A DNA stretch of 64,000 bases from UHGV virus genome UHGV-0390448, one strand, 5' to 3'. The position numbers were made by a program, and so were the translations under genes. The notes beneath the pieces were generated by a model. The model was given only the letters and a program-made list of their open reading frames with translations, was not told the origin of the DNA and did no database searches. The DNA is from a virus. Position 1 is the first letter of the stretch, and each line of letters starts with the position of its first letter. Below are positions 10,595 to 52,796 of the stretch, piece after piece.

Positions 10595-10601
10595 GTTAGA
10601 A
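10595..10601. promoter_or_regulatory. gttagaa half-site of the recurrent operator motif
   Basis: atgttagaaaactaattt; at the 3' end of the ref-like gene. Confidence 0.35.
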
Positions 10602-10603
10602 AA

Positions 10604-11221
10604 CTAATTTATTAATTCAGTCACCATCTGATACAACGTCATTTCATCAGCATTGTGCCGCCTGAAATCTGCTTTGCCGCCTATTTTTCCATCAGCATGA
10701 ACAGGGACCAACCAGGGGTATTGCTCGCGTATCTCTGCTGGCGCTGCGTGTTGATGGTGCCATTTACACAAAGGGAGAACGTATTTATGCGCGTTCTCTG
10801 CCGTTCTCCCGAAGATGTGGTGCAGGGATACCACAGGGCTATGCTGTCCGTGCATATGGCAGGCAATGCAGGGGAGGGCACCGATGGCAGTTTGTATCCG
10901 GCGCTCATCTGCTGTGAGTGTTCTGCCTTTCAGGCCGCGTGACGCGCGAGTTTTTTTGACAGGAGCAGAAGCGGCCTTCTCTTTTCTTCGCTGTTCATAT
11001 TGCTTCGCTTTTTCAATTTTCTTTTGCCGATATTCAGGCGATGCGGCTTTTTCTCGCGCACGCTGCTGCTGGCGTTGAGCTTGCTGAAGACGTTTTGCCC
11101 TTTGTTCCTCCCGCCATTTCGGATCAGCCAGTTTTTGCAGGGCTTTTTGTGTCTGTTTCTCCCAATAGCTTTGCTTCATAGAAATACCCGGTTTGTCTAC
11201 ATCGCCGCTATGGTTGATCAA
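10604..11221 (-). CDS. ref: Ref-like HNH endonuclease (recombination enhancement function)
   Basis: Highly basic, low-complexity N-terminal half plus C-terminal CIACHMHGQH...CKWHHQH HNH-like motif, as in P1 Ref. Start may be the internal ATG at 11179 rather than the TTG at 11221. Confidence 0.6.
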   Translation of the reverse strand: MINHSGDVDKPGISMKQSYWEKQTQKALQKLADPKWREEQRAKRLQQAQRQQQRAREKAASPEYRQKKIEKAKQYEQRRKEKAASAPVKKTRASRGLKGRTLTADERRIQTAIGALPCIACHMHGQHSPVVSLHHIFGRTAENAHKYVLPLCKWHHQHAAPAEIREQYPWLVPVHADGKIGGKADFRRHNADEMTLYQMVTELIN

Positions 11222-11222
11222 A

Positions 11223-11256
11223 TGTGTTAGAAAATCAAAATTGATTTTCTAACACA
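11223..11256. promoter_or_regulatory. 34-bp palindromic operator (gttagaa-N14-ttctaac) upstream of ref
   Basis: tgtgttagaaaatcaaaattgattttctaacaca, 16-bp perfect arms. Confidence 0.6.
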
Positions 11257-11296
11257 AAATGAAGATACTTTTTTTCATACGCTATATCAGGAGGTC

Positions 11297-11452
11297 ATGA
11301 TGCTTGTCGCAATAAGTGCAATCCACCAGCAATCCGGTACAGAAATTGGGTTGCTATATGCCCTGTTTTTCACTGTCCTGGCGTTGTTTGAGCTGGGCAT
11401 TGAACTCTTTGCTCTCATCAACTTTTGCGTAACGTTCCTGGGGAAACTTTGA
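11297..11452 (+). CDS. Small hydrophobic protein (51 aa), translationally coupled to the next gene
   Basis: caggagg RBS; predicted MMLVAISAIHQQSGTEIGLLYALFFTVLALFELGIELFALINFCVTFLGKL; stop overlaps next ATG (tgATGg). Below the ORF-track size cutoff. Confidence 0.35.
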   Translation: MMLVAISAIHQQSGTEIGLLYALFFTVLALFELGIELFALINFCVTFLGKL

Positions 11453-12063
11453 TGGCTATACGCATTATGAAAATTTACATCGCGGGTCCGATGACTGGTT
11501 ATCCCGACTACAACCGCACAGCGTTTTTTTCGAAAGCAAAAGAGCTGATGGAGGCAGGGCATATTGTTCTGAATCCGGCGCTGTTACCTGCTGGCCTCTG
11601 CCAGAGCGAATATATGGATATTTGCCTTGCTATGGTGCGTTCGGCTAATGCGGTCTATTTGCTCAAGGGGTGGGAGGAATCAGTTGGCGCTCGTGCAGAG
11701 CACGAGCTGGCTCAAAAGCTGGGGCTGAATGTAATTTATGAGTCACCAACCAACATTGAATGCCAGGTTGCTCCGCATATTTACCGGGAACTGGTCAATG
11801 CACTGCGTGATATCGCTGCTGTATATCACGGCACAGAACAGCTTCGTGAGCGTTTAGCCCATACCATTTCCTATTACCTGTCTGCATCTCATGAGCACAA
11901 GCTCCGTCAGAAGGTAATGATCAAATTTATCATGAGGTTATCGAAATCCCTGGCAAACGCCGATCCAAAGAATCCATTACCGAAAGAGGCAATGAATTAC
12001 CTGAAGTCCTGCAACATTGTTTCTGAAGATGGCGTTCTTTTGGTTAGAAGGAGTTCTGCGTGA
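11452..12063 (+). CDS. DUF4406-like (nucleoside 2-deoxyribosyltransferase-like) protein
   Basis: MKIYIAGPMTGYPDYNRTAF N-terminal pattern; start chosen at the ATG coupled to the upstream small ORF (track ORF begins at 11425). Confidence 0.5.
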   Translation: MAIRIMKIYIAGPMTGYPDYNRTAFFSKAKELMEAGHIVLNPALLPAGLCQSEYMDICLAMVRSANAVYLLKGWEESVGARAEHELAQKLGLNVIYESPTNIECQVAPHIYRELVNALRDIAAVYHGTEQLRERLAHTISYYLSASHEHKLRQKVMIKFIMRLSKSLANADPKNPLPKEAMNYLKSCNIVSEDGVLLVRRSSA

Positions 12064-12377
12064 GCTGGCGGGGATGGGGAAGGGCAGAAATCATGATACT
12101 CCGCCAGTGCGCCGGGACTATGACAGTCGAGGGTATTGGGAGACTGATCGGGCGTACCGGTGGTGCTGTCAGGACTAAAGCGCGGCAATTGCGGATCAGC
12201 ATGATTCTGAAAGGTGACTTTCACCAGTCAGCCAAATACCGGCAGAGCGATATAGAGCTGGCGCGGCAGCTTCATCAGTGTGGCGTTCCCCGCCGTGAGA
12301 TCGCAGAAAAACTCGAAATGCCCCTGGGCATGATTAATCAGTACGTTTATTTCGAAAGGAGAGTGCATGAAGTCTGA
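12060..12377 (+). CDS. Hypothetical protein
   Basis: ORF in a plus-strand array with overlapping stop-start junctions. Confidence 0.45.
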   Translation: MSWRGWGRAEIMILRQCAGTMTVEGIGRLIGRTGGAVRTKARQLRISMILKGDFHQSAKYRQSDIELARQLHQCGVPRREIAEKLEMPLGMINQYVYFERRVHEV

Positions 12378-12870
12378 AGGTTTAACGCCCGCACAACTGG
12401 CAGAGCGTAACGCTGAGTATGTAACGGAAATTTCCCGACTTGAGAAAGAGCGCGCGGCGCTGGCGGCGGAGAATGCACTTGCTCGTAAAGCTGTTCAGGC
12501 ATTCTGTGATGTTGTTGGCGACAACACTGAGATTATCTCCGAGTTGGTTGGGCGAGATGGCGTTCTGGTTATTTTGGAGGCCATGAAAGTAACAGGAAAT
12601 ATGCCAGCCACCGACGCTTTCCTGGCTGAAATACGTGCGGAGGCACGCAACGAGGGGATTAACTACACCGCAAGCCGCCTTGCTGCCGCTTTCAACCACG
12701 GATTTATCAATAAGTCTTTACGTGAAGTTTTCGACGTTACACGCATGATTCTGTCAGCGAAAGAAGAGTTGGCTAATGAACTGCACCCAATTGATGGCCT
12801 GTCCGGTGAATATGCGGAGAAATCCCTTGAAGAATGGGCGGAACAGATTCGCAAAGGAGTTCAGTCATGA
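12367..12870 (+). CDS. Hypothetical protein with ERAALAAENA coiled-coil motif (Ea22/Ead-like)
   Basis: 167 aa; motif recurs in 13841-14548 and 18117-19251. Confidence 0.5.
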   Translation: MKSEGLTPAQLAERNAEYVTEISRLEKERAALAAENALARKAVQAFCDVVGDNTEIISELVGRDGVLVILEAMKVTGNMPATDAFLAEIRAEARNEGINYTASRLAAAFNHGFINKSLREVFDVTRMILSAKEELANELHPIDGLSGEYAEKSLEEWAEQIRKGVQS

Positions 12871-13100
12871 GCATCCGAACTGAACATGGATTTGGTCCGT
12901 CAACGGTCGAAGTCGAATGGCTTGATGATTGCCCTAAGTGCCAGCACGGCAAAGCCAAGGTAACAGGATGGTCGGTAACCAAAGATTCTTTGTGGGCGGG
13001 TGATGAGGCCGTCTGTTCCAAATGCGGTCACAAAGGTGAAATCGATGCTGATGGAGAGAATGCCTGGGTGGAATGGGACGAAATCGAGGAGGCACAATGA
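12867..13100 (+). CDS. Small zinc-ribbon protein
   Basis: Two Cys pairs (CPKC...CSKCGH); internal start MSIRTEH. Confidence 0.45.
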   Translation: MSIRTEHGFGPSTVEVEWLDDCPKCQHGKAKVTGWSVTKDSLWAGDEAVCSKCGHKGEIDADGENAWVEWDEIEEAQ

Positions 13101-13519
13101 GCAACATCGACATCGATACACTGGCGCTGCGTGAGGCGGCAGAAGCAATAAAAATAGCAGCCACACCACAAAAATTGCTGGCATTTCGTATGAAAGTCAC
13201 ACCTCAGGTTGTGCTGGCACTGCTGGATGAACGGGAAAGAAACCAGCAATACATCAAACGCCGTGACCAGGAGAACGAGGATATTGCGCTAACGGTAGGG
13301 AAGCTGCGCGTTGAGCTTGAAGCAGAAAAACAGCGGGCAAAGGTTCTATTTATGGAAAATGCTCGGCTTAAGTCAGGCATAGCCGGTCTGATACACCTCG
13401 GTATTCGATATGCAGATGTTGAGGTCATGAAAATTGCTGGAGATGCCCAGCTTTCTACCCCATGCACTGACAGCATCATAAACAGCATTGCAACAGGCAT
13501 TCGCATCAAAGGAGAGTGA
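13097..13519 (+). CDS. Hypothetical protein
   Basis: ORF; internal start MSNIDIDT. Confidence 0.45.
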
Positions 13520-13520
13520 G

Positions 13521-13844
13521 ATGACCACATCGCATTCTGCAATCACCCAGGAAAAAGTATTTCGCTTGCTCGAACGTCTGGAGGCGCTCGCCACGGAGGA
13601 GGATATATCCCCGGAGATGCTGGTCGAGTGCAGCCGTGTGATATTGCGTCGCAAGAACGACATCGCGCGGCTGACATCTGGCGCACCATCCGTATCAGCC
13701 AGTCCAACGCTTTATTGCAGCTTCTGCAACAAATCCCAGCACACCGTTAAAAAGTTAATTGCCGGGGACAACGTTTTCATCTGCAACGAGTGCGTGAAAG
13801 ATTGCAACAACATTATCCAGGAAGAGCAAAGGGAATCAGCATGA
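13521..13844 (+). CDS. Small protein with ClpX-type C4 zinc-finger-like C-terminus
   Basis: C-terminal [39 protein letters not shown] closely resembles the ClpX N-terminal zinc-binding domain; aggagag RBS. Confidence 0.55.
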
Positions 13845-14548
13845 AATTTTCCAAATTTTCTGAGTTGGTGAATCGTATTTTGTCCAACAACCACAGCCAT
13901 CGTCGCGATATGGATGTAACGATCGTTGTTCATTCGCCTGGCAGCATTGGTTCAACACCTTCAGTTGAGGTTCAGTCAATTCACGCTGGTTTTGATTGGG
14001 ATTCCGGGAAAGTGCTGATTTTCCCAGCACAGCCACTGACCACGCTAACACCAGAACAGATTACTGATATCACGGATAGTGTGCGCAAAGGTCAGTCTTG
14101 GCACGCATACCAGGAATACAAGAAGCATAAAGAGCAGTTGGAAAAATTGTCGATTGAACTGGATGCTGCAAGACGGCGCATTACAGAACTGGAGAGCGAA
14201 CGCGCGGTGCTGGCGGCGGAGAATGCGGAGCTGAAGTCTGTGCACCCTCAACCATTCGGAGCTGAGATGATGAAGGCTCTTGATGCGTATGAGAAGCATC
14301 AGGATGAAGTGCCAGAGACTGGAATGCTCAATGCATTTTTCATCTTGCGCGACAGCATCCGTGTTGAAACCCCAGCCACCGACTCTTTCCTGTCTGAAGT
14401 GCGGGCGCAGGGGGTGGAAATGTTTGCACAGAAATGTAACTCAAAATCCGCACAGTCGCTTGCATCTGATATACGCGATAACTGGAAACTACTCGGTGAA
14501 CATGCAACTGACTTTGCCGATGAGCTTCGAAGAGGAAGCAGCAAGTGA
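13841..14548 (+). CDS. Hypothetical protein with Ea22-like coiled coil
   Basis: [16 protein letters not shown] motif. Confidence 0.5.
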
Positions 14549-14820
14549 ATATCGACACGACAATAACGATCGATACGCTCCTAAATTCCGGTCTGGCACT
14601 TCTCGGTTGGCTTTACATCATGTCCCGTACATGGCGATGGCTGGGTTCCATTTTCCTGAAACAGTGGAAAAAACGGCGCAAACAGGAACTACGCCAGAAG
14701 GCATTAGAAGCGTTCTATGACGCATTTGAACTTGGCAGCATTGAACCAGGCACAACAGCGAGGATAGCGACAAAAGGCGACCTGATGATAGTGATGTTCA
14801 GACAGGAGAAAACAAAATGA
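14545..14820 (+). CDS. Hypothetical small protein, one TM segment
   Basis: ORF; hydrophobic stretch LALLGWLYIM. Confidence 0.4.
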   Translation: MNIDTTITIDTLLNSGLALLGWLYIMSRTWRWLGSIFLKQWKKRRKQELRQKALEAFYDAFELGSIEPGTTARIATKGDLMIVMFRQEKTK

Positions 14821-15041
14821 CAGAACAGACGATGACAAATCGCGAACTTGTTGATGCCGCGATTGAACTTGCTGGCGATTTTTATTCCATGATGGGTTAC
14901 GAGCATCGACCTGGTTTTAAGTATTGGGAGTCACCGCATCCCCAAGAACAACAGGTGTTTGAAATGGCCTGCCGTGCTTTTGAGGTTATTCGCGGTTCTG
15001 ATGTGATGGACGCCGTTGCCGACTTGGAGGATGAAGAGTGA
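14817..15041 (+). CDS. Hypothetical small protein
   Basis: ORF only. Confidence 0.4.
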   Translation: MTEQTMTNRELVDAAIELAGDFYSMMGYEHRPGFKYWESPHPQEQQVFEMACRAFEVIRGSDVMDAVADLEDEE

Positions 15042-15349
15042 GCATCATTGTAGAAATGCCGGTAGAACGTGATGAATATGGCTGCTGGACACATCCGGAG
15101 TATGAAAAGTTTTGTGCAGGGCGTGAATATATTTCAACGGAAGAATTTGACGCATGGTTGAAGGCAAATAATCTTCAGTGGACCATCCAAACTATGGATG
15201 AAGATGATTTTAATCTGGACGCAGATGGTCCCGATATTGCCGCCTGGGAACCGGAGCGACCAGAGGGCGAAGGCTGGTTTGTTGGCTCTATTCATGACAC
15301 TGAAGATGGTCCGGTTTGTGTCTGGCTGCGGGAGAAGGTTGCCGCATGA
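15038..15349 (+). CDS. Hypothetical small protein
   Basis: ORF only. Confidence 0.4.
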
Positions 15350-16032
15350 CCCAGGTGCTGCATGAAGTGAATTTATATAGCCGTATTGATGGTTCAGGCT
15401 ACAGAAACATATGGGTTGTTGGTGATTTGCACGGTTGCTACACCCTACTTATGAATGAACTCCATCGTGTGGATTTTGACCCTACACAGGATTTACTGAT
15501 ATCGGTTGGCGACCTTATCGATCGCGGCACCGAAAATGTTGAATGCCTGGAGCTATTGCAGATGCCCTGGTTTCGGTCGGTTATGGGAAACCACGAGCGA
15601 TTAATGATCGATGCGTTAAGTCCCGCAGGCAACGTGAATAACTGGCTAATGAATGGTGGTCAATGGTTCTTCATGCTGGACGCTGATCGGGAAATATTAG
15701 CCAGGGCGCTGGTGGAGCTGGTAAGACGTTTGCCCTATATCATTGAGTTGAACACCGGGCATGAAACTATCGTTATAGCCCATGCCGACTATCCTGATAA
15801 CGAATACCAGTTTGGTAAACCTGTTAGCGATCTCAATGTTACCTGGCGGCGTGAGCGATTTTATGACGCGGTTGATGGTGTTGGTGGAATGATCACTGGC
15901 GCAGATAGCTTTATTTTCGGGCATACGCCAGTAAACAGCCCGAAATCTTTCTGGAACCAGCACTACATAGACACTGGCGCGGTTTTTTGCGGAAATCTGA
16001 CGCTAAAGCAGGTGAAGGGAGGGCAGTTGTAA
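15346..16032 (+). CDS. Serine/threonine protein phosphatase (lambda-phosphatase-like metallophosphoesterase)
   Basis: GDLHGC, GDLIDRG and GNHE motifs; internal ATG start with gagaagg RBS. Confidence 0.7.
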
Positions 16033-16064
16033 TCCTGAACACATCGTTTATGCACTCAAAATGA

Positions 16065-16094
16065 TGTTAGAATATTGATTTTAATTTTCTAACA
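16065..16094. promoter_or_regulatory. Operator site gttagaa-N14-ttctaac
   Basis: tgttagaatattgattttaattttctaaca; about 45 bp upstream of gene 16137-17132. Confidence 0.55.
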
Positions 16095-16136
16095 GATTAT
16101 TTTACCGCTCGGAACAAAACAGAGTCGGTATACATT

Positions 16137-17132: not shown

Positions 17133-17136
17133 TGGA

Positions 17137-17871: not shown

Positions 17872-18130
17872 GTCAAAATGCCAAATTAATGGCAACAAGA
17901 TAGAACCGTGCGCGGCGTTGGCACAATCCCTGGAGCATGACGCTGAATACACGACGCGAAAAGGTCTGCTGAAATACAAAATCTATAACCATGCATTAAT
18001 TCATTCACAAGACCTGATCATGCTGCGGTCAGGCGAGTTTTCTAAATCGCCGATTCGAATTTCATTTTGCCCGTTCTGTGGTGAAAGTCTGAAAACGTGG
18101 GAAGCGGAGGCAACCAGTGAGCAAAATTAA
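17864..18130 (+). CDS. Hypothetical small protein
   Basis: ORF only. Confidence 0.4.
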   Translation: MSESKCQINGNKIEPCAALAQSLEHDAEYTTRKGLLKYKIYNHALIHSQDLIMLRSGEFSKSPIRISFCPFCGESLKTWEAEATSEQN

Positions 18131-19251: not shown

Positions 19252-19257
19252 CAAACG

Positions 19258-19791: not shown

Positions 19792-19801
19792 GGCATAATT
19801 T

Positions 19802-20182: not shown

Positions 20183-20183
20183 T

Positions 20184-24538: not shown

Positions 24539-24637
24539 TTAGCCCCCAGCGTGGCGCGCGTACAAACCCCGCTTTCACAAACTATGCCTTTTCAATGTAT
24601 ACTGTATGAATAAACAGTATTATTGAGGTAAAACGCT

Positions 24638-29634: not shown

Positions 29635-29692
29635 AGTACCCTCCGCAATAGGCGAGGGTACTTTACATTAAAATGCACTGTCTAAAAAGATT

Positions 29693-29699
29693 GTTAGAA
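29693..29699. promoter_or_regulatory. gttagaa half-site at the 3' end of cre
   Basis: ttgttagaaaattaattcagg. Confidence 0.3.
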
Positions 29700-29706
29700 A
29701 ATTAAT

Positions 29707-30735
29707 TCAGGAATCCATCAGGCGACTATTTGCACCAACGGATGCCCCGCTACGGCGCAAATATCGCATAAGTGTTTCGGGCTTTTTCCATGTGCCTTCC
29801 TGCATGATCTCGACCATTGACACCTGTTTCTCAGCCATATCAATTGCCGCACCAACACGCGCACTATGACCTGTCCACGTCCGGTATCTTCCTTTGTTCG
29901 GCGTGGCATCTCGCTTATTCAGCAATCCCCAGGCATCGCTGAATATTTTCTCCATCGCAGGAGCAGTAAGAGGCGTTGTCGTGATTCTGGCTTTATTACT
30001 GCGGTGTATTGGCGGGAATAGCACCGCGTCCGGATGTTCACGAAGTCCGGACACCTCCAGCCAGTCGTTTAGCACGGCGGTAGTGCAACGAGAAAGCACC
30101 TTATCAAGTCCGGCGGCGGTCGTGATGGTCTTCGTGTGTGAAATATGCAGCGTTACAGTGTCACCTGTTTGGTCCAGATCTCCGACACGGATGCGCGAGA
30201 TTTCTGACATACGCATCAGGGTATTGTATGCCACGAAGAGAAACGCCCGATTGCGCAGGTCCACCAGCCGCTCGGAACGGGACAGCAATACGTCGAGCAA
30301 TTTCAGATCATCCCACCGCAACGGTATAGCCTGGCCTGTACGCTCGCCTTTTTCCGTTGCCGCTTCGCGCCGGATGCGCCGCATGGCCAGAGATACACTT
30401 TTATCGTCTGACAGCGGCGGTAGGCCGCATTGCGAAAGCAGCATGTTAAGCATGGCATAGTGCTTATCAATGGTGGTCGAAGCCAGATCGGCTTCATGCA
30501 ACTGGAGAAGATACTCGCGGGCCATTTCCGGCGTAATCGGGAACCAGGGGCGCTGGCGCGAATTACACCACCGCGCCCAGGAATGAAAGACCAGACGGAG
30601 ATCACGAAGTGTATTTGGGGCATAAGCTCCCTGGTCGTTCATGAACTGCATAAAGTTTTTTGCAGCTTCCTGGTATTCGGTGCCAATATCGCGCAGAAAA
30701 CCGCCAGAACCGCCGGAGATAACTAGTTCACCCAT
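29707..30735 (-). CDS. cre: Cre-like tyrosine site-specific recombinase
   Basis: 342 aa; blocks WFPITPEMAREYLLQL, AYNTLMRMSEISRIRVGDL and WTGHSARVGAAIDMA align to P1 Cre (WFPAEPEDVRDYLLYL, AYNTLLRIAEIARIRVKDI, WSGHSARVGAARDMA). Confidence 0.85.
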   Translation of the reverse strand: MGELVISGGSGGFLRDIGTEYQEAAKNFMQFMNDQGAYAPNTLRDLRLVFHSWARWCNSRQRPWFPITPEMAREYLLQLHEADLASTTIDKHYAMLNMLLSQCGLPPLSDDKSVSLAMRRIRREAATEKGERTGQAIPLRWDDLKLLDVLLSRSERLVDLRNRAFLFVAYNTLMRMSEISRIRVGDLDQTGDTVTLHISHTKTITTAAGLDKVLSRCTTAVLNDWLEVSGLREHPDAVLFPPIHRSNKARITTTPLTAPAMEKIFSDAWGLLNKRDATPNKGRYRTWTGHSARVGAAIDMAEKQVSMVEIMQEGTWKKPETLMRYLRRSGASVGANSRLMDS

Positions 30736-30886: not shown

Positions 30887-30920
30887 CTAACTTTAAATAA
30901 TGCCAATTATTTAAAGTTAG
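30887..30920. other. lox-like recombination site, 13-bp inverted arms with 8-bp asymmetric spacer
   Basis: ctaactttaaata-atgccaat-tatttaaagttag; arms 9/13 identical to loxP, spacer begins ATG like loxP; about 150 bp upstream of the cre-like start. Confidence 0.6.
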
Positions 30921-31089
30921 AAATCGGGACTTTTTTCCCAAAAAAACACCGGCAAGATCACTTCGCAAATCTGTCAGCCATGCGGTAGCCGTTTCCTGGT
31001 TACATTTTCTAATAGGAACAATCAAAAAAAAGCGGTTTTATCCTTTACTCACCTTGTTATTCAGCATAAATTTGTCACAGGACTTTTAT

Positions 31090-31096
31090 GTTAGAA
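31090..31096. promoter_or_regulatory. gttagaa half-site about 20 bp upstream of the candidate repressor gene
   Basis: atgttagaaaactaaat. Confidence 0.4.
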
Positions 31097-31116
31097 AACT
31101 AAATCGAGTAGGAATA

Positions 31117-32154
31117 ATGAGTAAGAAGTCGATCGAGAATGAGTACAAACGGTTCCTGCAAACCGCTGAACGGTGGAAAGAGCTGGTGGTCGCAAACTCT
31201 GTTTTCCATGATACCAGTTACGTTGGCGAGGAATTTCGCCATGTTGCATTAACACATGATCCGGCTGTATTAGAAGAAGCTGAAAAATGCATAGCCGAAT
31301 GGAAAGCCTTTGTTGATCTGTGTCGCAAGGATGATGACAAAGCCTCAAACATTGTTGAGTCGGTTTATTTACCGATCCCATTCATTGTTGAGGATACTAA
31401 TCAGAGTACGCATATCGTTATGCAAAGCGCAACCACAACGAGAACATTTACGCGCGAAGACCTGCTGAAAAAATACGATAAAACTATAAAGAAAAGCATG
31501 AAAAACAGGATCTTTTCACAGGTTGTCGGTGCGCTTGAAGAAGAACGCAGATTCTTCGCCGCAGAACGTGAGGGCGAGGTATACCGCGCAAGAAAAGAAG
31601 GTTATACCGATGTGGTGATTACCACCAATATCGAGGGCAACAATGGACTTTCACGCTTCAGAGTGGGTACGCACGGTGCGCTGATCTTTGCAAAAAAAGC
31701 AAACACAGAGATTCCCGTTGTTAACAACGTTGGTGAGCGCCGCACCCTTACCATTTACACTGGCATTAAACCGCTTCCGTGCGGACTTCTCGGCGAATTT
31801 GACCTTTATCGGGTTCGTGACCTGGAAAAGCAGCAGCCAAGCTATGTCGTGAAGTCATATATCCTGAGAAACATTGATATCCGCAATCAGAGTTTAAAAA
31901 ACAAATCAGAGAAAATGCTGTCCGAAGCCGATCCAGCCATACACCAGATCGTTAGCCGGAAAATTCAAGAAGCTAAAGATGCAATGGCAAGGCTGGATAA
32001 AATGGACCTGGAACTACTGGAAGTTATGATTGCCTCCGGCGATGACCTGACAGGCATCCGCCTTACTGAAGCCAGGAAAAAATACGGTAAAAGCGTTGAA
32101 GAACGCTATGGGTACACATTCACACAAACGATGTACGCGGCAAAACTCTGGTAA
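31117..32154 (+). CDS. Candidate immunity repressor, positional analogue of P1 c1; family not recognised
   Basis: 346 aa from MSKKSIENEY; convergent with pacB and between pacB and lox, where P1 has c1; own terminator. No similarity to P1 C1 recognised from memory. Confidence 0.5.
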   Translation: MSKKSIENEYKRFLQTAERWKELVVANSVFHDTSYVGEEFRHVALTHDPAVLEEAEKCIAEWKAFVDLCRKDDDKASNIVESVYLPIPFIVEDTNQSTHIVMQSATTTRTFTREDLLKKYDKTIKKSMKNRIFSQVVGALEEERRFFAAEREGEVYRARKEGYTDVVITTNIEGNNGLSRFRVGTHGALIFAKKANTEIPVVNNVGERRTLTIYTGIKPLPCGLLGEFDLYRVRDLEKQQPSYVVKSYILRNIDIRNQSLKNKSEKMLSEADPAIHQIVSRKIQEAKDAMARLDKMDLELLEVMIASGDDLTGIRLTEARKKYGKSVEERYGYTFTQTMYAAKLW

Positions 32155-35530: not shown

Positions 35531-35558
35531 TATTAGAAAATTAATATTAACTTACTAA
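35531..35558. promoter_or_regulatory. Degenerate operator site attagaa-N14-tactaac
   Basis: Same 7-14-7 spacing; upstream of 35061-35453. Confidence 0.4.
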
Positions 35559-35560
35559 CA

Positions 35561-38051: not shown

Positions 38052-39366
38052 ACTTGCCGGGTACGTCTCCGGCGAGGGCTTCCACCTCCGTATGCTTTTC
38101 GGCGCACCGCGCCCTGGCTGCAATTCGGTAACAGGGGATACACAACCCTGGCTTCCAGCGTGATTAGCGCCTTCAGCATGACGGGATATACCCGTTACAA
38201 GACATTATTCCAGAAAGCCATTAACCAATGGCTGTTACGCGGGAAGGACGTAACAGGTAAGGGCGCTGACCAGAAAGACCTGACCCTTCTCATTCATCTG
38301 GTTAATCACACCGGCGCCCTTGCCTGTTATGCCTCCCCGTTCCCTAATACACAGACGGGGACACTCTGCGGTCGATTTTTTGACGGGGGACGACTCATAC
38401 CCCGTGGCGTCAGGCTTCTTAGGCCGCTACCATCATCAGATCATCGTTTGCATTTACTTTAATGGTCGGGTTCTAAACCGCCGCAAAGTCGCTAACCATG
38501 ACGAAAACACTGAAAAAACACCCACCCGAAGGTGGGCAAATATCCCACTCGCGGTATTGCCACTTAGGCGTATGGTCAACCTGGCAACTCGGTGTCCTCA
38601 ACGGGGAAGGAATAACCCCGCCATACTTACCGCCGCGCCTGTCGCGGTTATCGCTACGTATCAACATAAAAGCCGACTGCCTGAGCAAGATTCACTTTCA
38701 AAGGCCCGCAGAAAGGAATCCATAGTCGGCTTTTATCTTGAAGCGGCTCTCTCTCCGCCCGTCACCGTCCTATCCCGGTTGTCGCGTTTGCCACGCCAGC
38801 CGTAACGAGGTTTAAAGTCTTTTCACGTTTTCATCACTCGACTGCCGTCTATGGCTGTTCGTTGCAGCGGGGGTGCCTCCCCCTGGGGATATCCCCGGCC
38901 TTACCCCCATTCTTTCAAAACACAATGCAAGGCCACATCCGCATAGGTGCATTACCGCAACGTTAAGGAGACTCAGAGTCAGCAAAATAAGAGGAAAACC
39001 CAACTCTGCGCCTCCTTAACGTTGAGGATGTGCACTGATGATGACCCGATGCAGCCTGGCCCACTTAACATACTCACTGCCAGATCATCATCAATGAACA
39101 CCTTAAAAAGACCTTCCGTGGCTCAAGTCACTGTCGTTTACTCCGTAAAATGCTCTCGCTGAAACCACTTTACGCACTAAACCTGCCGGGCATGTATTTG
39201 CACGGTGCCGGAGCTTTCCCTTACCTTAAAATTTACTTTCTAACACTTAAGTTTGTTTGATGCTGGTGGGGGAAGACAATGAAGTGACTATCAAACCCGC
39301 AAGCGACATGGGAAGCTCCCCACCAGCACGAAAAATTCTATGTTAAGTTAATTCCATAATCAACAT
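38052..39366 (-). other. About 1.3-kb ORF-free, inverted-repeat-rich region between the tRNA cluster and an operator site; candidate transcribed leader or structured ncRNA
   Basis: Only short, overlapping, low-complexity ORFs in all frames; long-range inverted repeats, e.g. acgttaaggag/ctccttaacgt (about 38959-39022), tgatgatga/tcatcatca (about 39036-39095), aaaagccgact/agtcggctttt (about 38670-38733). Confidence 0.25.
39238..39244. promoter_or_regulatory. ttctaac half-site
   Basis: tttactttctaacacttaag. Confidence 0.3.
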
Positions 39367-39394
39367 GTTAGAAAGATAATTTTAGTTTTCTAAC
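39367..39394. promoter_or_regulatory. Operator site gttagaa-N14-ttctaac
   Basis: atgttagaaagataattttagttttctaacac; between the 3' end of 39398-40606 and the ORF-free region; positioned to control minus-strand transcription into the tRNA cluster. Confidence 0.55.
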
Positions 39395-39397
39395 ACA

Positions 39398-40606: not shown

Positions 40607-40632
40607 GTTTGTTCCCTTTCTTGAAATTAGTT

Positions 40633-40639
40633 TTCTAAC
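40633..40639. promoter_or_regulatory. ttctaac half-site in the promoter region of 39398-40606
   Basis: Minus-strand reading atgttagaaaactaattt, same as the sites at 10595 and 31090. Confidence 0.4.
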
Positions 40640-40682
40640 ATATTTTATTAGTATGCAATTTCAATAAAAAGACTCAGGCAAC

Positions 40683-41238: not shown

Positions 41239-41685
41239 TTAATCAAGATTTACATATTCCGTGATAGCTTTTATGGCTTCATCGGCACTGCGCGCCTCAA
41301 AGCAGTAATAGCCTGCTTCCGTGAGGCGGGTCATCCAGACGAGCTGTTCGGGAGTCAGACGGTTTCTCCCGTGCTTCATCTCAATGCGCATTCCGTGATA
41401 CCCACCACGAGCAAGGTCAATAGAAAGGTCCGGATAGCCCTTCTTCTGACCTTCTGCCACCATCTTAATGGCTGTCCTTTTGCCTCTCAGGCCGCCGTTC
41501 GGTGTTGAGTGTGTGTGTTCATACACGTATCGCATGTTGCGATACAGCCAATCCAGAACGCGAACCTGTTCGTAATGTTCGTAATTCCTTTTTAGTAAGT
41601 CAGGATTTCTTTCTAACTCTCTTAGTGCAGCAGCGTGCGGGGATATTTCAGAATACGCACTATGATGCCTGCGTCTTCGCATCAA
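41239..41685 (-). CDS. VRR-NUC domain nuclease
   Basis: KGYPDLSI...RIEMKHGRNRLTPEQ pattern of PD-(D/E)xK VRR-NUC proteins; operator half-site at its start. Confidence 0.6.
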   Translation of the reverse strand: MMRRRRHHSAYSEISPHAAALRELERNPDLLKRNYEHYEQVRVLDWLYRNMRYVYEHTHSTPNGGLRGKRTAIKMVAEGQKKGYPDLSIDLARGGYHGMRIEMKHGRNRLTPEQLVWMTRLTEAGYYCFEARSADEAIKAITEYVNLD

Positions 41686-41687
41686 AT

Positions 41688-41694
41688 TTCTAAC
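41688..41694. promoter_or_regulatory. ttctaac half-site immediately upstream of the VRR-NUC gene
   Basis: atcaaatttctaacacaaac. Confidence 0.35.
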
Positions 41695-41871
41695 ACAAAC
41701 TTCCTGAAATCATGATCACGATAATAACAAGAGCGTTAGTTTTATCAAAACCGGGTGAAATACTACTAAAGAGATAGGCGGATGCAACAGGTCGGACTTG
41801 TTTTTAGAGTAAATGGTGATGCGGGTCAACAAGCCGGGTAAATTGTATGTCATTTACCCAACTTGTTATTT

Positions 41872-42132
41872 TTAATGGTTTATTTTATCCGGTTCGTTAA
41901 TTTCTGTAACCGCCTTGTCGATAGCGATCATCCATCCTTCATAGGATAAATCATCAACAAGGCCCACCAGCTTATCGTCAGTGTGCGGAAAATAAATCCA
42001 TCCCCATTTCGAAGGGTTTTCTATATGCCGCAGGGTAAATACCCGCTTATAACGGTGGTATTCAAGGGCGTATCCCTTCCCTTGTGAGTACGCTTTTAAG
42101 TCGTCGATCGTAAACCTACGATTCTTTCGCAT
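41872..42132 (-). CDS. Hypothetical small protein
   Basis: 86 aa; 3-nt gap to upstream gene. Confidence 0.45.
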   Translation of the reverse strand: MRKNRRFTIDDLKAYSQGKGYALEYHRYKRVFTLRHIENPSKWGWIYFPHTDDKLVGLVDDLSYEGWMIAIDKAVTEINEPDKINH

Positions 42133-42134
42133 AG

Positions 42135-42569: not shown

Positions 42570-42605
42570 TCAAATCCGGCCCCGGCTGGGGCCGCTCCTT
42601 ATCTG

Positions 42606-45600: not shown

Positions 45601-48600
45601 TTTGGCAGGGCATCAGCAATAGCTTTTACCTTGTCTGCAAGCTCAACGGGGAACTGGAATGTAATCGCACTGGCATACAGATCCGGATCTATAGCAACCT
45701 TATCCATGTCGCGGATGATGGAGAAGATGAAATCATCCGGTTTTTCGTTTGTGATATGCCCGTTTTCATCAACCGTCAGCGCATCTTTACTACTTAACTC
45801 CTGTGCACGCTTACGAAGCTCTTCATAAGCAGCCTCCTGCTCCCCTGTCATCGGGATCTGCAAGGTATTCTCGACAATATCAGGGATTTTAACCGTCGCC
45901 CCGACGTCCGCAGCAGTCTTCAGAGTAGTCCAGCGATGGAAAATACCACGCAGGCCATCAAGGTTCTGGAAGCCAACCAGCCCCTGCTTCTCTTCCACTT
46001 CCCCGGAAATTTTCTGGACCTGAACTGTGGCTGTTTTGCCAAACACACGAACGAAATCATCAGGCGTAATGATGCCCATGCGCATCCACTCTTCCTGCGG
46101 AATGACAGTAGACAGCATGTTGAAGGCATCAATCGGACTGTTCACCAGCGGAGTTGCCGTCAGCATGACTACACCACGCCCGTTGTTGCGTTTCATCATG
46201 TACGCAGCTTTTACAGCCATGTCGCGGGCCATCTTGGATACTGCCGGGTTAGGCAAATATGCCAGTTGTCCCGCTTCACGCCCGGCATTAAAGGAGTTGC
46301 GGTAGTTATGCCCCTCGTCGGCAATCACGCTATCGAAGTTCATATCCTCAAAGTACGGGATATTCTGCTTCTTCGTTGTACCGGTATTCGCGGCCTGATC
46401 CTTAATCTTGTTCTTCTTCTGCGCATCACGGTGTTTACCAGACGCCAGGTCAAGACGCCCCATTTCCACAGCATTAAAGACAGCTTGCTGTGAGTTCTCC
46501 TCGATGGTTTTTTCTCGTAGCGGGATAGACGCGAATTGTTCTTTTGTCATGATGACCGTTCGCCAATTTGACGACGGGATCATGTTCATGCGCTGAACGA
46601 TAACGGCGCTGGCGGACTCTTTCACAACATTTCTGGTAAGAGGCTGCCCGTTACTGTCGAGGCGGGGTTCGCCATTTTCATCAAGCACCGGCGCGGTCAG
46701 AATATTGCCGTCTTCATCACGAACTTCATCCAGACCGATAAACATCATATTGGCGAAGGCATCAGCACTGTAGAAGCTCTGTGCCTCGTGATACCAGTTC
46801 TGATAAACCGCCTTCGGAACAACAATACACGTGCGTTTAGTGCGGCCTGTTTCGAAGTTATACGCCTCAAGCGCAAGCGCGGTCGTGGTTTTACCCAGCC
46901 CGGTACCAAATCCCATGATGCCGCGCCCATCTTCTGACAAGCGCCGAACTTCTTCATTCTGATAAGTCAGAGGAATGCGCTTTCCACTAATCCCTTCCAG
47001 GCCAAGCGGTGCGTTAGAGTGCGTGAACGGAATGAAGCCATTGAATGCGTCGTTATACTCGCGGGCTATCTGATCCGCCTGCGGGTGGGTGCGTAACCAG
47101 TCGTTAAAACTAACTTCCAGTTGAGCAATTTTATCCAGGTACTCGTTAGCGTTCTGCCCACGCGGTTTAACACCGTTCAGGTAGTTTTCTAACTGGTTCA
47201 GGAAGCCGTCTTTATTGTTGGCCTTCTTGAACTCATTCCCGTTTTTGCCGTTTACGGTTCGTAGCTGATAGCCGGTAAATACCCCGTCCTTACCTTCGTA
47301 ATCGTCCGGAGATACCAGAATGCCATCGACGACCTTCAGATCAGGTTCAGTGTACTTAAACTCGTCATAGCCCTGCTCTGCCAGGAACTCTTTTATCAAG
47401 CGGCGATCCAGCCAGCGGGCGTTCAGATTAACGGTGACTTTATTTAGTGGCGTGAAAATGCGTTTCTCTTCGATTTTCGCCAACTGACGCTCAAAGTTCG
47501 ATTTCTGCTCACCTGTTGACGCATCACGCCAGCCCATCAGCAATGCTGTTTTGGTTGCAATATCGCCGCTGGTGGCGCGGTCCATCGGCAGCAGGCAGCC
47601 ATACCCATCAATAGCGATATCATCAAATTTCGCCAGGTATTCAAGGGCCGCGTCGTCGTCCTCTGGCAGTTCACCAGCAAACGCCTCACGAAAGTCGCCC
47701 AGCGTTATAGGATTAAGGGCTACATCACTGAAAAGATGTGCTATCACTTGTTCCGGACGTGTAAAGTCAATACCGGCAGCACCATCCGTTACATCAAGTC
47801 GCCCTGCCAGAAGGTCAGAAGTGGAACCATCCTGTTTCACGTTGCCAGTGAACGTCATCCAGTTTTTAGCTCCAGCTTCTGCAAGCCCATTCAGCTTAAT
47901 CGCGTGCGGTGGTCCATACTTCGCAACTTCTGCTGCCGCCAGGCGGGATGCATCTGCCAGTTTGTCATCAACGTTCACCCCCAGGTTACGCAAATCAAGT
48001 GCCTTGTTGATCAACTGCCCTATCAACGCACCGCGCATAACGCGCTCCCTATCTTTTTCTCGCTGTTTGCCAGCAAAGCGAATCATTGCTGCCACTTCAT
48101 CACTGACAACCGATGGATAGTCGGACGCGATCGCCGATATCTGGTCCCATGACAAAGCCAGAATCCCGTTTGTTGACTGGAACGCGATCTGCAGATCGCC
48201 AAACGTCGAAACACCATATCGACTTACATCAAGCGCGGAGGATTTGGTTGTCGTGTCCTTAACCCATTTCAGGCCATCAAACTCATGCCAGATACCGCCT
48301 ACAAGGCGCTTATCCCCTACTTTTGCGCCCTGCCATGCCTGGGTAGTTACTCCGAGCAAATCCCAATTAATACGGCTTTCAAAGCGGCGTGATAGAGCGG
48401 TTTTCATCGACTCATTGGATACACGGCCATCCTTTTTCACCACCAGGGTATTGCGGAAGCTGGTGCGTTCCATGTCGCCATAAACAAATCGCTTCCCTTC
48501 GGTTGTAAACCATTTCCCTTTGAGGAAGGAATCCCAAAGGACGTTTGCCGATTTGAGCGTTGCATCATCCGTGTCGGGGATCATCTCCAGGAAGGTTTCC

Positions 48601-49457: not shown

Positions 49458-49594
49458 AACCGTTAAATCCGCCTTAAGCGGTTCGGTTTGAGAGGGTATG
49501 GAGAATGTTATTTTCAGGGATGAACGACACTACCGTCAAAATCACATACTCACCATAGTTTGCCTACTTATTAACCCATGAGCGGGAGAAATAT

Positions 49595-50080
49595 ATGGCA
49601 AACATTGAACCTCGCTGGCTTATTGAGGCCCGTAAAAATATTGGAGTCACCGAAATAAAAGGAGCGAAACACAATCCTGAGATCGTTCAGTTCTGGCGGG
49701 ATATTAAGCGCAGCGGAATTAAAGACGACGAAACGCCGTGGTGCGCTGCATTTGTTGGTGCAATGCTGGAACGTGTAGGTATCCGCTCAACAAGATTTGA
49801 GTCGGCAAAATCCTATCTGGATTGGGGCGAGAAATTAGATACACCGGCATACGGATGTATCGTTGTATTTACTCGCGCAGGCGGTGGGCATGTAGGCTTT
49901 GTTGTCGGACGCCGCGCCAATGGCGATCTGCTTGTCTTGGGTGGGAACCAGGGGGATGCTGTTAATATTCGCGCATTCCCAACATCAAGAGTGTCTGGCT
50001 ATCGCTGGCCTGCTGGCGAACCACGCAATACAGCTCTGTTACCAGTCGGAGACGCAGCAACCTCAACTAATGAGGCATAA
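49595..50080 (+). CDS. CHAP/NlpC-P60-like cysteine peptidase (TIGR02594-like), putative cell-wall hydrolase
   Basis: Conserved Cys (PWCAAFV) and His (GGGHVGFVVG) spacing; lone plus-strand gene. Confidence 0.5.
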   Translation: MANIEPRWLIEARKNIGVTEIKGAKHNPEIVQFWRDIKRSGIKDDETPWCAAFVGAMLERVGIRSTRFESAKSYLDWGEKLDTPAYGCIVVFTRAGGGHVGFVVGRRANGDLLVLGGNQGDAVNIRAFPTSRVSGYRWPAGEPRNTALLPVGDAATSTNEA

Positions 50081-50103
50081 AAAAGCCCCGGCCTGGCCGG
50101 GGC
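50081..50103 (-). terminator. GC-rich hairpin with U-run on the minus strand
   Basis: gccccggcc-t-ggccggggc preceded by aaaa on the plus strand. Confidence 0.45.
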
Positions 50104-50111
50104 ATCACACT

Positions 50112-51016
50112 TCAAGTTACGATCCAATCATTACCGACTGCATCCGCCGTCGATAAATCGACTTCCCGGATCTGGTATCCATTAACACAAAACCATCCAG
50201 TAGTAGAGCTATTATCAGGCCAGACCCATACACCAACACTCCATGCTTTACGGCGGCACACTTCAGCCTGTCCTTCCCTGATTTTTTTTACCGCCTGCAT
50301 GATGTCCATCACTCGCCTCCCCAACCGATCACCTGGAATTGTCCCATCCTTGGGTGATACCAGCGTTTTCCTCGGTGTTCAGCCTCCGACATCATCAGGT
50401 TAAAGGCATTCATGAAGGGAGATAAGGCCACAATAGTACGACGCGACAATACCCCCTCTGGCGTCAAAAACTCATGCGTATCAGTGGGTATCCGGTAAGC
50501 GTTGACCAGGTTGCGGCATTTGGCTTCAGTCAGGCCGCATTTTGCCGCCAACTGGCGGTAGCCAATGTAGCCTTCCGGAATATTGCCTTTCTTGATCTGC
50601 TCGACGGTTTCAGCAACCTGGCTAACCTTTGACTCAACAACATGAAGCCGCTTTTGCTGCTGAACTGCATTTGCAGCCATTGCAGCGATCATCTCTATTT
50701 CGGTCAACGGCTGGCGTACTTGTTCTTCCAGTTCGCGCCAGCGGTCCACCAGCCGGGCGGTGAATTCGGGAGAGAGCTGCGCGACGACGATAATGCTATC
50801 GCGCTTGCCTTGCTCGCCTTCGAAGACGTAAGCCTCAACACTACGTCGTAGTCCTAAGTTATTGATTTTTTCGAAAACCTCAATTTGAGGACGAACAATA
50901 ACGCCACCTTTGGCTAATGTCTCAATAGTGCGTTTCACATTGTCATGACGTTTTCCCACCAGCTCCGCAATCTCAATGCTGGTCATTGATGGTTTTTCGA
51001 GAATGCAGATATCCAT
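50112..51016 (-). pseudogene. Rha-family regulatory gene, copy 2, split into two overlapping ORFs by a frameshift
   Basis: ORFs 50309-51016 (235 aa) and 50112-50324 (70 aa) together align to the intact 308-aa copy at 8650-9576; frame switch falls just after the shared WYHPRMG-FQ motif, near 50325-50345. Confidence 0.5.
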
Positions 51017-51240
51017 CAGTGAGCCTCCGCAATGCAGGGATTAGTAATATTGCGATACCAGGGGTTAGTGTTTGGTTGTGGGGAAGTAGAGAAACGACCA
51101 GTGAGCACGCCATACTGATCAGGGATCAGAGAACGGGCTTCTTTTTCAGTTGCGGCAATTGCGAAGTGATCGCAGTGTTTTTGCAGGGAGTGAAAACGCC
51201 AGATGAATTCTGGACGTGAGCAAGGATTGGCATTAACCAT
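51016..51240 (-). CDS. Ash-like small protein, copy 2
   Basis: 74 aa; paralog of 9576-9791. Confidence 0.45.
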   Translation of the reverse strand: MVNANPCSRPEFIWRFHSLQKHCDHFAIAATEKEARSLIPDQYGVLTGRFSTSPQPNTNPWYRNITNPCIAEAH

Positions 51241-51570
51241 AGTTACGGCCTCACTAACAGGTTTAACAACCTGCTACCCGCTGCTAAACAGGTGGCAGGA
51301 CGTGACGGGGTTAGCAGACTGGCGTTAGTGAAACCAGCAGGCCGAAGCCTCCCCATCACGCCCCACCATAATTTGGGCGTAACGCGGTTTTACGGACACA
51401 AAAATACCGCAATATCGGATATCTGCGGTTGTCCGCACTAACATTCAGGCTGCTAAACCCGGTCGCAGAATTTGCTACGACGGCATGAATATAAGCCTGA
51501 ACATTAGAAAGATCAACAGAATTTTTATCAGATGCTGTTTTTTAGTGACGATATAAATCATACATTCTTG

Positions 51571-51598
51571 ATTAGAAACATCAATTTAATTTTCTAAC
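51571..51598. promoter_or_regulatory. Operator site attagaa-N14-ttctaac upstream of the Ash-Rha module
   Basis: gattagaaacatcaatttaattttctaacat; about 330 bp upstream of the Ash start. Confidence 0.5.
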
Positions 51599-51656
51599 AT
51601 ACATTTTCGAGCGATGAAATTCCCGCCGCACGGTTATTGTACAGTCAATCGCAACA

Positions 51657-52616
51657 TCATCCCCGAAAGCCCTCCGGAATTGACCAGTCTTCCCGGTCAA
51701 ATTCAGACCGATAGCCACGCTGTTTCATCAGGTCAAATGCTTCATTGATGGTTGCACATCCCTGGGAAGCAGAATAATCCATAGAGAAATCCAGGGCGCT
51801 GGATCGTTTGGGCTTATTCACTGTGGTAGCACTACGTAACCATGCAAATTTTTTTGCCAGTTTTTCAGCGGTACGATACAGAGCCTGCCGTTTTGCGAAC
51901 CCCTCGTCTGAACGACGCTTTGCAGCTCTCGCTTTTGCCGCCGCCAAACAGTGGTTGGTATGTTCTTCCCTGATTACTGTTTTTTTATCCAGCAAGCCAT
52001 TATCCGCTTGAGAACTATCTGCTGGTGAAGCCTTTGGCTGAACCGCGCATGATCTTTCTCTTCTTTTGGCTATAGAGTGACTCTTATTTTCTATTGGCTG
52101 TTCATTTTGAACATGGGGGGACTTGTTCAATTTGAACAGGGGGTGCCCAGTTTCAAAAAAATAACGAACCTTTGAAATCAACTGCTTAACCAGTTTTGTG
52201 GCGTTGGCAAATTTGATGCCCTGCTTACTCCCTATCTCCATTGCTACATGAATGAAGTGGAGAAATTGTGTTGTAAACCGGTACACGTTACACACCTGAG
52301 CATTGTTATTCGCTACCTGATGCTGCTTAACAAGCATTCCGCACTTCGTCGCTTCAGTAAATGCCCGGCGCACAGTAGAAATACTGCGTCCTGTAATCTC
52401 GGACATATCAGCATATGAGCGACGGATCATGTATTCATCGGTAGCTCCTGCCAGGTTGGCGAACTCGGCAATAATGGCGCTATGTGAAGGGGAAAGAAAA
52501 CCGCTATGACGAGCAAAAAAACTCAACTGATGACCTTTGATTTTTTTGTGGTATTCAGTGTTGTTTTTATACTCAGAAGTGTTGAAAGTAACTGAAACTG
52601 AATTTAAAATACTCAC
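51657..52616 (-). CDS. Putative replication initiator (RepL-like, winged-helix); tentative
   Basis: 319 aa; HTH-like segment EITGRSISTVRRAFTEATKCGMLVK; operator half-site in its leader, as for the C1-controlled kilA-repL replicon of P1. Confidence 0.35.
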   Translation of the reverse strand: MSILNSVSVTFNTSEYKNNTEYHKKIKGHQLSFFARHSGFLSPSHSAIIAEFANLAGATDEYMIRRSYADMSEITGRSISTVRRAFTEATKCGMLVKQHQVANNNAQVCNVYRFTTQFLHFIHVAMEIGSKQGIKFANATKLVKQLISKVRYFFETGHPLFKLNKSPHVQNEQPIENKSHSIAKRRERSCAVQPKASPADSSQADNGLLDKKTVIREEHTNHCLAAAKARAAKRRSDEGFAKRQALYRTAEKLAKKFAWLRSATTVNKPKRSSALDFSMDYSASQGCATINEAFDLMKQRGYRSEFDREDWSIPEGFRG

Positions 52617-52677
52617 CAGATAGTTCCGTGAAAAATCTATCTACCGTATAAATCTATGCCAGTGGATTTATACACCC

Positions 52678-52710
52678 AAAAGCCGCTACTCAGCGGCTTT
52701 TGCTTTTTTT
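52678..52710 (+). terminator. Plus-strand rho-independent terminator inside the Rep-like leader
   Basis: agccgct-actc-agcggct followed by tttgcttttttt; no plus-strand CDS upstream. Confidence 0.45.
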
Positions 52711-52789
52711 GGCAGTCGCTACCGGAGCAGTGACCGCGATCCTACTCGATCACGTGCCGTCGGATCAACAGTGTATAAAAACACACTGT

Positions 52790-52796
52790 GTTAGAA
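52790..52796. promoter_or_regulatory. gttagaa half-site upstream of the Rep-like gene
   Basis: ctgtgttagaaaattaagc. Confidence 0.4.

Follow-up and report, generated by a model that had tools for sequence, protein, structure and literature searches.

The DNA analyzed here, a 64,000-nt stretch of the virus genome UHGV-0390448 (the window; all coordinates are window positions), carries a dispersed set of short asymmetric sites that are very probably the operators of a C1-type prophage repressor. The window shares 83–88% DNA identity with Escherichia phage D6 (MF356679) and is 97–99% identical to several ~90-kb plasmids of Escherichia coli and E. marmotae, i.e., it belongs to a D6-like, P1-related plasmid prophage of Escherichia. 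Phage D6 is the P1-related plasmid prophage from which the Dre/rox system originates. D6-like prophages are common in Escherichia/Salmonella plasmid collections, with 98 plasmids in PLSDB covering at least 80% of a 12-kb probe. A collinear gene map was obtained by mapping the proteins of D6; about 26 kb of the element fall outside the window, and 12.7% of the window is non-coding. The map starts with tail genes, mat, immI-1, ref, an early operon, pdcB-pmgT-pmgU, humD-phd-doc and isaA-dut, continues with dre, rox, c1, pacB-pacA-lpa, the tRNAs, pmgS, pmgR and pmgM, and ends with ulx, darB, immI-2, repL, pro-prt and the dar operon.

Along this map we located 17 strong copies and one weak copy (30998–31014) of a 17-bp element with the consensus TGTTAGAAAAYTAAWWT. 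They occupy 12 loci, eight of the sites being single (the weak one included) and five being inverted pairs, which we term monovalent and bivalent, respectively. The predicted operators are listed below together with the candidate repressor gene, with matrix scores, conservation in D6 and counterparts in P1.

31117–32154, plus strand: c1, candidate prophage repressor, a D6-type C1 of 345 amino acids (aa), 80.3% identical to D6 gene 1 ('prophage repressor').
10594–10610, plus strand: predicted monovalent operator; overlaps the stop codon of ref and lies upstream of orf86-orf85 and of immI module 1; matrix score 27.1; 17/17 identical in D6; P1 Omat, which overlaps the P1 ref stop.
11225–11254, no strand: predicted bivalent operator between ref (minus) and the orf88 early operon (plus); perfect 7-14-7 pattern; matrix scores 24.2 and 25.9; P1 Oref.
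16065–16094, no strand: predicted bivalent operator upstream of the pdcB-pmgT-pmgU operon (plus); 27/30 identical in D6; P1 OpmgT. The window PmgT is 81% identical to P1 PmgT, which is encoded behind OpmgT in P1.
29692–29708, plus strand: predicted monovalent operator between the dre stop and the orf117-dut-isaA operon (minus); matrix score 26.4; kept at the dre 3' end in D6 and in the D6-like contigs L010–L013; no exact P1 counterpart, with isaA sitting behind Ossb in P1.
30998–31014, minus strand: predicted weak operator upstream of the c1 promoter; matrix score 8.3; L010–L013 have a strong TTTTCTAAC block at the aligned position.
31089–31105, plus strand: predicted monovalent operator 12 nt upstream of the c1 ATG; matrix score 24.4; 17/17 identical in D6; block conserved in six lineages. 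The P1 counterpart of this site and the weak one, which lie around the c1 promoter, is the Oc1 cluster.
35531–35560, no strand: predicted bivalent (degenerate) operator upstream of lpa, the late-gene activator (minus); 25/30 identical in D6; P1 Olpa.
39229–39245, minus strand: predicted monovalent operator in the tRNA-cluster leader, the second one there; matrix score 23.1; TTTCTAACAC core conserved in D6.
39366–39395, no strand: predicted bivalent operator directly after pmgS and before the tRNA cluster (minus); 7-14-7 pattern and matrix match; P1 bivalent Obanab.
40624–40640, minus strand: predicted monovalent operator before pmgS; matrix score 27.1; 17/17 identical in D6, with flanks 70% identical; P1 OpmgRa/b.
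41679–41695, minus strand: predicted monovalent operator over the pmgM start; matrix score 17.6; in P1, O26/Oppp flank pmgL-pmgM.
51570–51599, no strand: predicted bivalent operator between the repL stop and immI module 2; 7-14-7 pattern and matrix match; P1 Orlf by position, Oc4 by function.
52789–52805, plus strand: predicted monovalent operator upstream of repL, the lytic replication initiator (minus); matrix score 22.6; P1 OrepL.

The first-pass annotation, made from the sequence alone, had described these sites as full GTTAGAA-N14-TTCTAAC sites accompanied by half-sites. With up to two mismatches allowed, the 7-14-7 pattern occurs five times in the window versus 0.17 expected, a number reached by no shuffle. 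Four of the five full sites were found where they had been placed (11226–11253, 16066–16093, 39367–39394 and 51571–51598, the last with one mismatch). The degenerate fifth site exists as well, but it lies at 35532–35559, one position off the 35531–35558 given earlier, and has two mismatches. All seven half-sites that had been named (10595, 29693, 31090, 39238, 40633, 41688, 52790) are present, and the weak site at 30998–31014 upstream of c1 was missing from that list. The heptamer GTTAGAA itself was counted 20 times versus 6.8 expected, and 14 of these 20 belong to operator sites; the other six (12043, 30916, 41611, 47187, 57703, 59719) correspond to about the number expected by chance. One of these, the non-operator GTTAGAA at 30916, arises where the rox site (30888–30919; TAACTTTAAATAATGCCAATTATTTAAAGTTA) ends in GTTA and is followed by GAA. 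Moreover, the 13-mer form of the motif had 19 matches versus 3.2 expected, and the most enriched intergenic 8-mer, TGTTAGAA, was found 14 times in intergenic and once in coding DNA.

A 17-bp matrix yielded 17 matches at ≥12 bits, compared with 1.65 in a Markov null. Since it was trained on the same sites that it scores, the 8-mer count, the five full sites versus 0.17 and the 13-mer count serve as the independent statistics. Sites had been thought to be intergenic throughout; this is the case for 14 of the 17 matches, and the other three overlap a gene end by 2–7 nt, i.e., at the ref stop, the dre stop and the pmgM start. With none of the 17 inside a gene and the 14-to-1 distribution of TGTTAGAA, the matrix scan that had been suggested as a check ruled out a similar density in coding DNA. 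A GTTAGAAAACTAC sequence at 47181–47193 lies inside the darB coding region and is present in D6, too, without the flanking T and the 3' arm. We dismissed it as an operator and treat it as probably a chance occurrence because it scored below 8 bits and darB is 98% conserved.

Alignment of 17 half-sites showed information across 17 consecutive positions (0–16), reading T-G-T-T-A-G-A-A-A-A-Y-T-A-A-W-W-T, which is not self-complementary. Each 'half-site' is therefore a complete asymmetric element, and a 7-14-7 'full site' consists of two 17-mers that are inverted and overlap at their AT-rich ends, spanning 28–30 bp (28 between the outer G's). The layout of palindromes plus half-sites thus has to be replaced by asymmetric 17-mers that stand singly or as 28-bp inverted pairs, as in P1.

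We compared the element with its relatives, counting operators across genomes at ≥12 bits. With the D6-type matrix, the window had 17 sites and D6 had 15, and P1 had none. With the P1 matrix, P1 itself had 26 sites, and the window had none bearing the core; the P1 consensus ATTGCTCTAATAAATTT, described as asymmetric (PMC8546580), is absent from the window. All 12 orthologous loci in D6 keep the motif in place, identity being 85.6% inside the operators versus 76.7% in the flanks, and several operators are 17/17 identical in D6 inside poorly conserved spacers. Outside the window-equivalent loci, D6 has a further site at 54201 and a bivalent pair at 64116/64129 upstream of hrdC-dcm-dmt, which matches P1 Odmt. 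Neither of the D6 records (MF356679 and the immC fragment AY753669) has an operator annotated. Conservation extends to L010–L013, the C1 of which is 43–49% identical: in these contigs, two copies of the TGTTAGAAA core (tGTTAGAAA) surround the c1 promoter, and further copies are kept at the dre 3' end as well as close to lpa and to pmgS.

Across lineages, the 5' core tGTTAGAAA does not change, whereas the 3' arm varies. The window and D6 have AYTAAWWT, L010 has one extra A, L011 has AATAGATTTATT, and L013 has GT-rich arms, e.g., AGTGTATTTG. Within the D6 group, the invariant TGTTAGAAA core together with a lineage-specific 3' arm could set immunity types or subtypes.

Two immunity modules lie downstream of operators in the window, each comprising a C4 RNA with icd and an antirepressor gene. 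Their parts are as follows.

8650–10056, minus strand: immI module 1, with an isrK/a1b1-like leader, C4 RNA (9846–9933), icd (9576–9791) and a Rha-type antirepressor (8650–9576).
50309–51494, minus strand: immI module 2, with c4-a1b1 (51442–51494), C4 RNA (51288–51373), icd (51016–51240) and a Rha-type antirepressor (50309–51016).

In Rfam, module 1 matched RF01695 at 77 bits plus RF01394, and module 2 matched RF01695 at 70 bits plus RF03163. P1 Icd and the Icd of module 1 share 63% identity. The two antirepressors belong to the Rha family and not to P1 Ant, with matches to PF09669 (Phage_pRha) and to a winged helix-turn-helix (HTH). In module 2, the stretch from icd across C4 as far as the constitutive promoter has 89% identity to P1, and this homology ends at 51516, just before the operator. 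Where P1 carries Oc4 and a C1-controlled promoter, the window carries its own bivalent operator with a −35 element inside. This junction, together with the conservation of the sites in D6 and in L010–L013, ties the motif to C1 and not to the regulated genes.

In the P1 GenBank record, C1 operators of 17 bp are labelled 'monovalent', and two operators, Oc1ab and Obanab, in each of which a pair of inverted 17-mers occupies 28 bp, are labelled 'bivalent'. P1-record operators that matched by position are Oref, Omat, Oc1, Olpa, OrepL, Oc4, OpmgR, OpmgT and Obanab. The parallel with the P1 C1 regulon drawn in the first-pass annotation is hence borne out, as the sites sit at counterparts of annotated P1 operators. 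Its view that the motif is distinct from the P1 operator also holds, with ATTGCTCTAATAAATTT absent from the window and the new motif absent from P1. The open reading frame 31117–32154, which it had put forward as the repressor gene, proved to be a c1 homologue, with 80% identity to D6 and 21% to P1 and with PF27008 on its relatives. A P1-type network with a different specificity, as it had suggested, is likewise supported to the extent that sequence analysis can do so, and a recognition sequence unlike that of P1 is to be expected in a relative that has an immunity of its own. What it had called 'rewired' amounts to a co-divergence of repressor and operator within the known D6 group.

By its sequence, the product of 31117–32154 is a distant homologue of P1 C1. 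BLASTP aligned the two proteins at 21% identity over 241 aa (E=1e-7), and the gene sits in the conserved dre/rox-c1-pacB-pacA-lpa arrangement. The family PF27008 (Phage_P7_repressor_C1) is recorded on all C1 relatives; in the Pfam search the window C1 itself had no match, and no Pfam HTH was found in it. An exhaustive search of 1.84 billion representatives gave a C1 family of 92 clusters at 50% identity, of which an indexed protein search reached 13. The family falls into two length classes of 250–290 aa and 345–380 aa, respectively, the longer one with a C-terminal extension, and the window C1 (345 aa) has an extra C-terminal helical region compared with P1 C1. A sequence search of the PDB found no structure for the C1 family.

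Upstream of c1, a six-way alignment shows four conserved blocks: a minus-oriented upstream operator, the −35 TTTACT, the −10 TAAATT and a downstream operator. The promoter TTTACT-17-TAAATT (31044–31072), conserved in six lineages, is thus flanked by two operators, an arrangement that points to autoregulation of c1. Promoter-like sequences were also found at other operators. The −10 (TATGTT) of TTGAAA-16-TATGTT before pmgS (40664–40637) overlaps the operator 40624–40640, and the −35 of TTGATG-16-TATGAT at immI-2 (51584–51557) lies inside the operator 51570–51599. At the tRNA leader, the operator 39366–39395 adjoins the −35 of TTGATT-17-TAGAAT (39363–39335). At pmgM, the operator lies ~26 nt downstream of a strong TTGATA-16-TATTAT (41748–41721) with 10/12 matches. 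Relative to transcription, sites occur in both orientations, as in P1.

A ~1.3-kb GC-rich non-coding leader (38052–39365, minus) separates the operators from five tRNA genes (Arg, Tyr, Thr, Ser, Met). Part of this leader, downstream of 39366–39395, is 86% identical to the P1 ban-operon leader behind Obanab, the dicF-like region included; in P1, the tRNAs lie in the ban operon and are controlled by Obanab. The leader also contains a strong hairpin, GCTGGTGGGG...CCCCACCAGC (39327–39260), between its two operators, a terminator-like hairpin (38538–38519), and a weak, sub-threshold Rfam match to permuted transfer-messenger RNA.

We propose that the 17-bp sites are, with high probability, the operators of the D6-type C1 repressor encoded at 31117–32154, with TGTTAGAAAACTAATTT and the 28-bp pairs as predicted C1 targets. 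In a lysogen, C1 at or beside sigma-70 promoters would keep lpa, repL and ref off. It would also silence the early operons orf88-ppp and pdcB-pmgT-pmgU, the dut-isaA operon, pmgS, pmgM, the tRNA/leader operon and both c4-icd-antirepressor modules, and would throttle its own promoter via the two flanking sites. The C4 antisense RNAs would act as a second lock on icd-ant and restrain the Rha-type antirepressors, through which induction, or superinfection by a phage of the same immunity, would work.

A number of findings weigh against this proposal. C1 is just 21% identical to P1 C1 and scored 24.5 bits on NF041318, compared with an equivalog cutoff of 500 bits (NCBIfam). The D6-type and P1 operator matrices show no significant similarity (p ~0.12, column shuffles). 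Promoter-like hexamers are not commoner than in shuffled sequence, and the overlaps of operators with promoters are therefore suggestive only. Several of the 'bivalent' sites have a degenerate second half in D6, so that bivalency may not be essential. No homologue of Lxc, Coi or ImcA/B (tblastn with the P1 proteins against the window) or of P1-type Ant was found in the window, so the accessory circuitry either differs or is unrecognisable. What the sequence analysis demonstrates is the motif with its statistics, positions and conservation, the homology of the repressor and the match to P1 site by site; C1 as the binder, repression as the effect of binding, and one monomer per 17-mer, as reported for P1 C1, are inferred.

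Another phage regulator might bind the motif in place of C1, i.e., a Rha-family winged-helix protein or an unrecognised Cro-like one, and the parallel with P1 would then reflect shared promoter positions only. Both 'antirepressors' are potential DNA binders, given their PF09669 and winged-HTH matches, 28-bp inverted pairs would suit a dimeric HTH protein, and C1 binding to the motif is itself an inferred step. However, eight single asymmetric sites are ill-suited to a symmetric dimer, and the motif accompanies D6-type c1 in every lineage examined, the c1 promoter included. Moreover, the sites stand in for P1 C1 operators one for one, and the Rha-type genes lie behind operators as targets, like ant in P1. 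We thus regard a different phage regulator as improbable.

Slightly less probable still is a promoter or host-factor element (UP-like or −10-like, or a site for IHF, Fis or H-NS) that acts with no dedicated phage repressor. The motif is AT-rich, contains a −10-like TAAWWT and occurs at or near promoter-like hexamers, but its sites lie in both orientations and at variable positions, i.e., upstream of the −35, over the −10 and at +20. P1, which has the same hosts, has no motif at ≥12 bits, and the late operons share a different box. Neither the IHF nor the Fis consensus resembles the invariant GTTAGAAA core, which further counts against a host factor. A chance or compositional artefact of AT-rich intergenic DNA is hardly credible. 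Intergenic DNA is indeed AT-rich and the six GTTAGAA copies outside the sites are about the chance number, yet five identically spaced sites versus 0.17 expected, the 17-bp information profile, and sites kept in place across relatives with C1 43–80% identical all speak against it.

Apart from the searches above, KilA, Ssb and Ban homologues were not found in the window, and the D6 annotation lists neither Lxc nor Coi. The position of lxc, directly after darB-ulx, is taken by orf13 (D6 orf13; 41872–42132, minus), which encodes 86 aa, compared with 82 aa for P1 lxc. It was rejected as an Lxc homologue, as it has no sequence similarity to Lxc; by analogy of position, orf13 could be an analogous co-repressor.

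The model of C1 offered a structural lead. Tus-Ter complexes were its sole significant structural match, with template modeling scores (TM-scores) of 0.34–0.39, and a BFVD structure search with C1 returned nothing. Sequence homology between Tus and C1 was not detected: hhalign gave a probability of 0.2, and a profile search against the sequences in the PDB was negative as well. Tus acts as a monomer on an asymmetric site and, via TerB, represses the tus gene itself (PMC10331603). Tus and C1 both have asymmetric sites of ~17–23 bp, with one just upstream of the own start codon in each case: TATGTTAGAAAACTAAAT, the c1 operator, stops 12 nt short of the c1 ATG (31084–31119 compared), and TerB TATGTTGTAACTAAAG ends ~10 nt before the tus ATG (E. 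coli tus promoter, L014 1727–1762). The two systems differ in that they lack sequence similarity, the TM-score is low, and fork arrest is, in this comparison, known for Tus-Ter only. A sequence likeness of Ter and the operator, striking by eye, was dropped, as the matrix test was not significant (p ~0.1).

It is conceivable, though we hold it for somewhat doubtful, that the PF27008 C1 repressors of P1/D6-type plasmid prophages are Tus-fold, monomeric, asymmetric DNA clamps. With TM-scores of 0.34–0.39, no sequence signal and a TerB likeness that is not significant, this lead is unconfirmed. A Tus-like mode would fit one monomer per 17-mer, the stoichiometry reported for P1 C1. If confirmed, it would account for the reading of an asymmetric site by a monomer and have implications for where Tus came from. 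Tus and plasmid-prophage immunity repressors would then share ancestry, in line with a published proposal that plasmids were the source from which Tus-Ter was domesticated.

Late operons carry a box of their own. At lydA, prt, ddrB, darB and gene 7, a common GAAAT[AC]ACA is followed by a −10-like ATAAG/ATAC, at approximate positions 61700–61725, 55540–55565, 57925–57950, 49490–49515 and 2870–2895, respectively (all minus). This box, unlike both the P1 box AAGTGACTT and the operator, is a candidate D6-type Lpa-dependent late promoter. The operator motif itself was rejected as an Lpa-dependent late-promoter element, as the P1 late box AAGTGACTT is absent and the late operons have a different box, none of them with the motif. 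Elsewhere, a canonical LexA box CTGTATGAATAAACAG (24602–24617) lies 20 nt upstream of humD, the humD-phd-doc block being 93.5% identical to P1. A second LexA-like CTGT-N8-ACAG (5187–5202) lies at the start of gene 26.

A dispersed C1 operator regulon is known P1 biology, and the D6 group, to which the element belongs, is known as well. The sequence of the D6-type operator and its map may be new; no relevant report was found in the literature searched, and an earlier description may exist. The operator TGTTAGAAAAYTAAWWT with its 12-locus map provides a testable model of lysogeny maintenance and predicts immunity groups with no cross-repression between P1 and D6 types. It would moreover place an orthogonal repressor/operator pair beside the already exploited Dre/rox. 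A whole dispersed regulon would have kept its wiring while repressor and operator co-diverged, and at one junction the operator alone differs from P1.

Among known systems, lambda CI/Cro resembles the window in that a prophage repressor acts over lytic promoters and its own gene. Lambda, however, uses dimeric HTH proteins on symmetric operators that are clustered at one or two places, whereas the window has single, asymmetric, genome-dispersed sites and a C1 without a recognisable HTH family. Eight single asymmetric 17-mers, and a C1 with no Pfam HTH match, set it apart from a system of the lambda CI type.

The closer parallel is the C1 (ImmC) regulon of P1/P7. It shares with the window a homologous repressor in the same lox/rox-recombinase-c1-pac-lpa setting, an asymmetric 17-bp operator in single and 28-bp inverted-overlapping forms, and about a dozen dispersed loci. 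Shared targets are ref, the ref 3' end, c1, lpa, repL, c4-icd-ant, pmgR/S, pmgT and the tRNA/ban leader, and in D6 also hrdC-dmt. The operator sequences differ, ATTGCTCTAATAAATTT in P1 versus TGTTAGAAAAYTAAWWT in the window; a sequence kinship of the two was considered and rejected, as the best matrix alignment was not above column shuffles (p=0.12). Five of the 12 loci in the window are bivalent, compared with two annotated bivalent operators in P1. Also, the window has two immI modules with Rha-type rather than P1-type antirepressors, no Lxc or Coi detected, and no ban, kilA or ssb. D6 is the same type of element as that of the window, with a C1 that is 80% identical and the motif at all 12 orthologous loci; it differs in that several of its inverted pairs have a degenerate second half.

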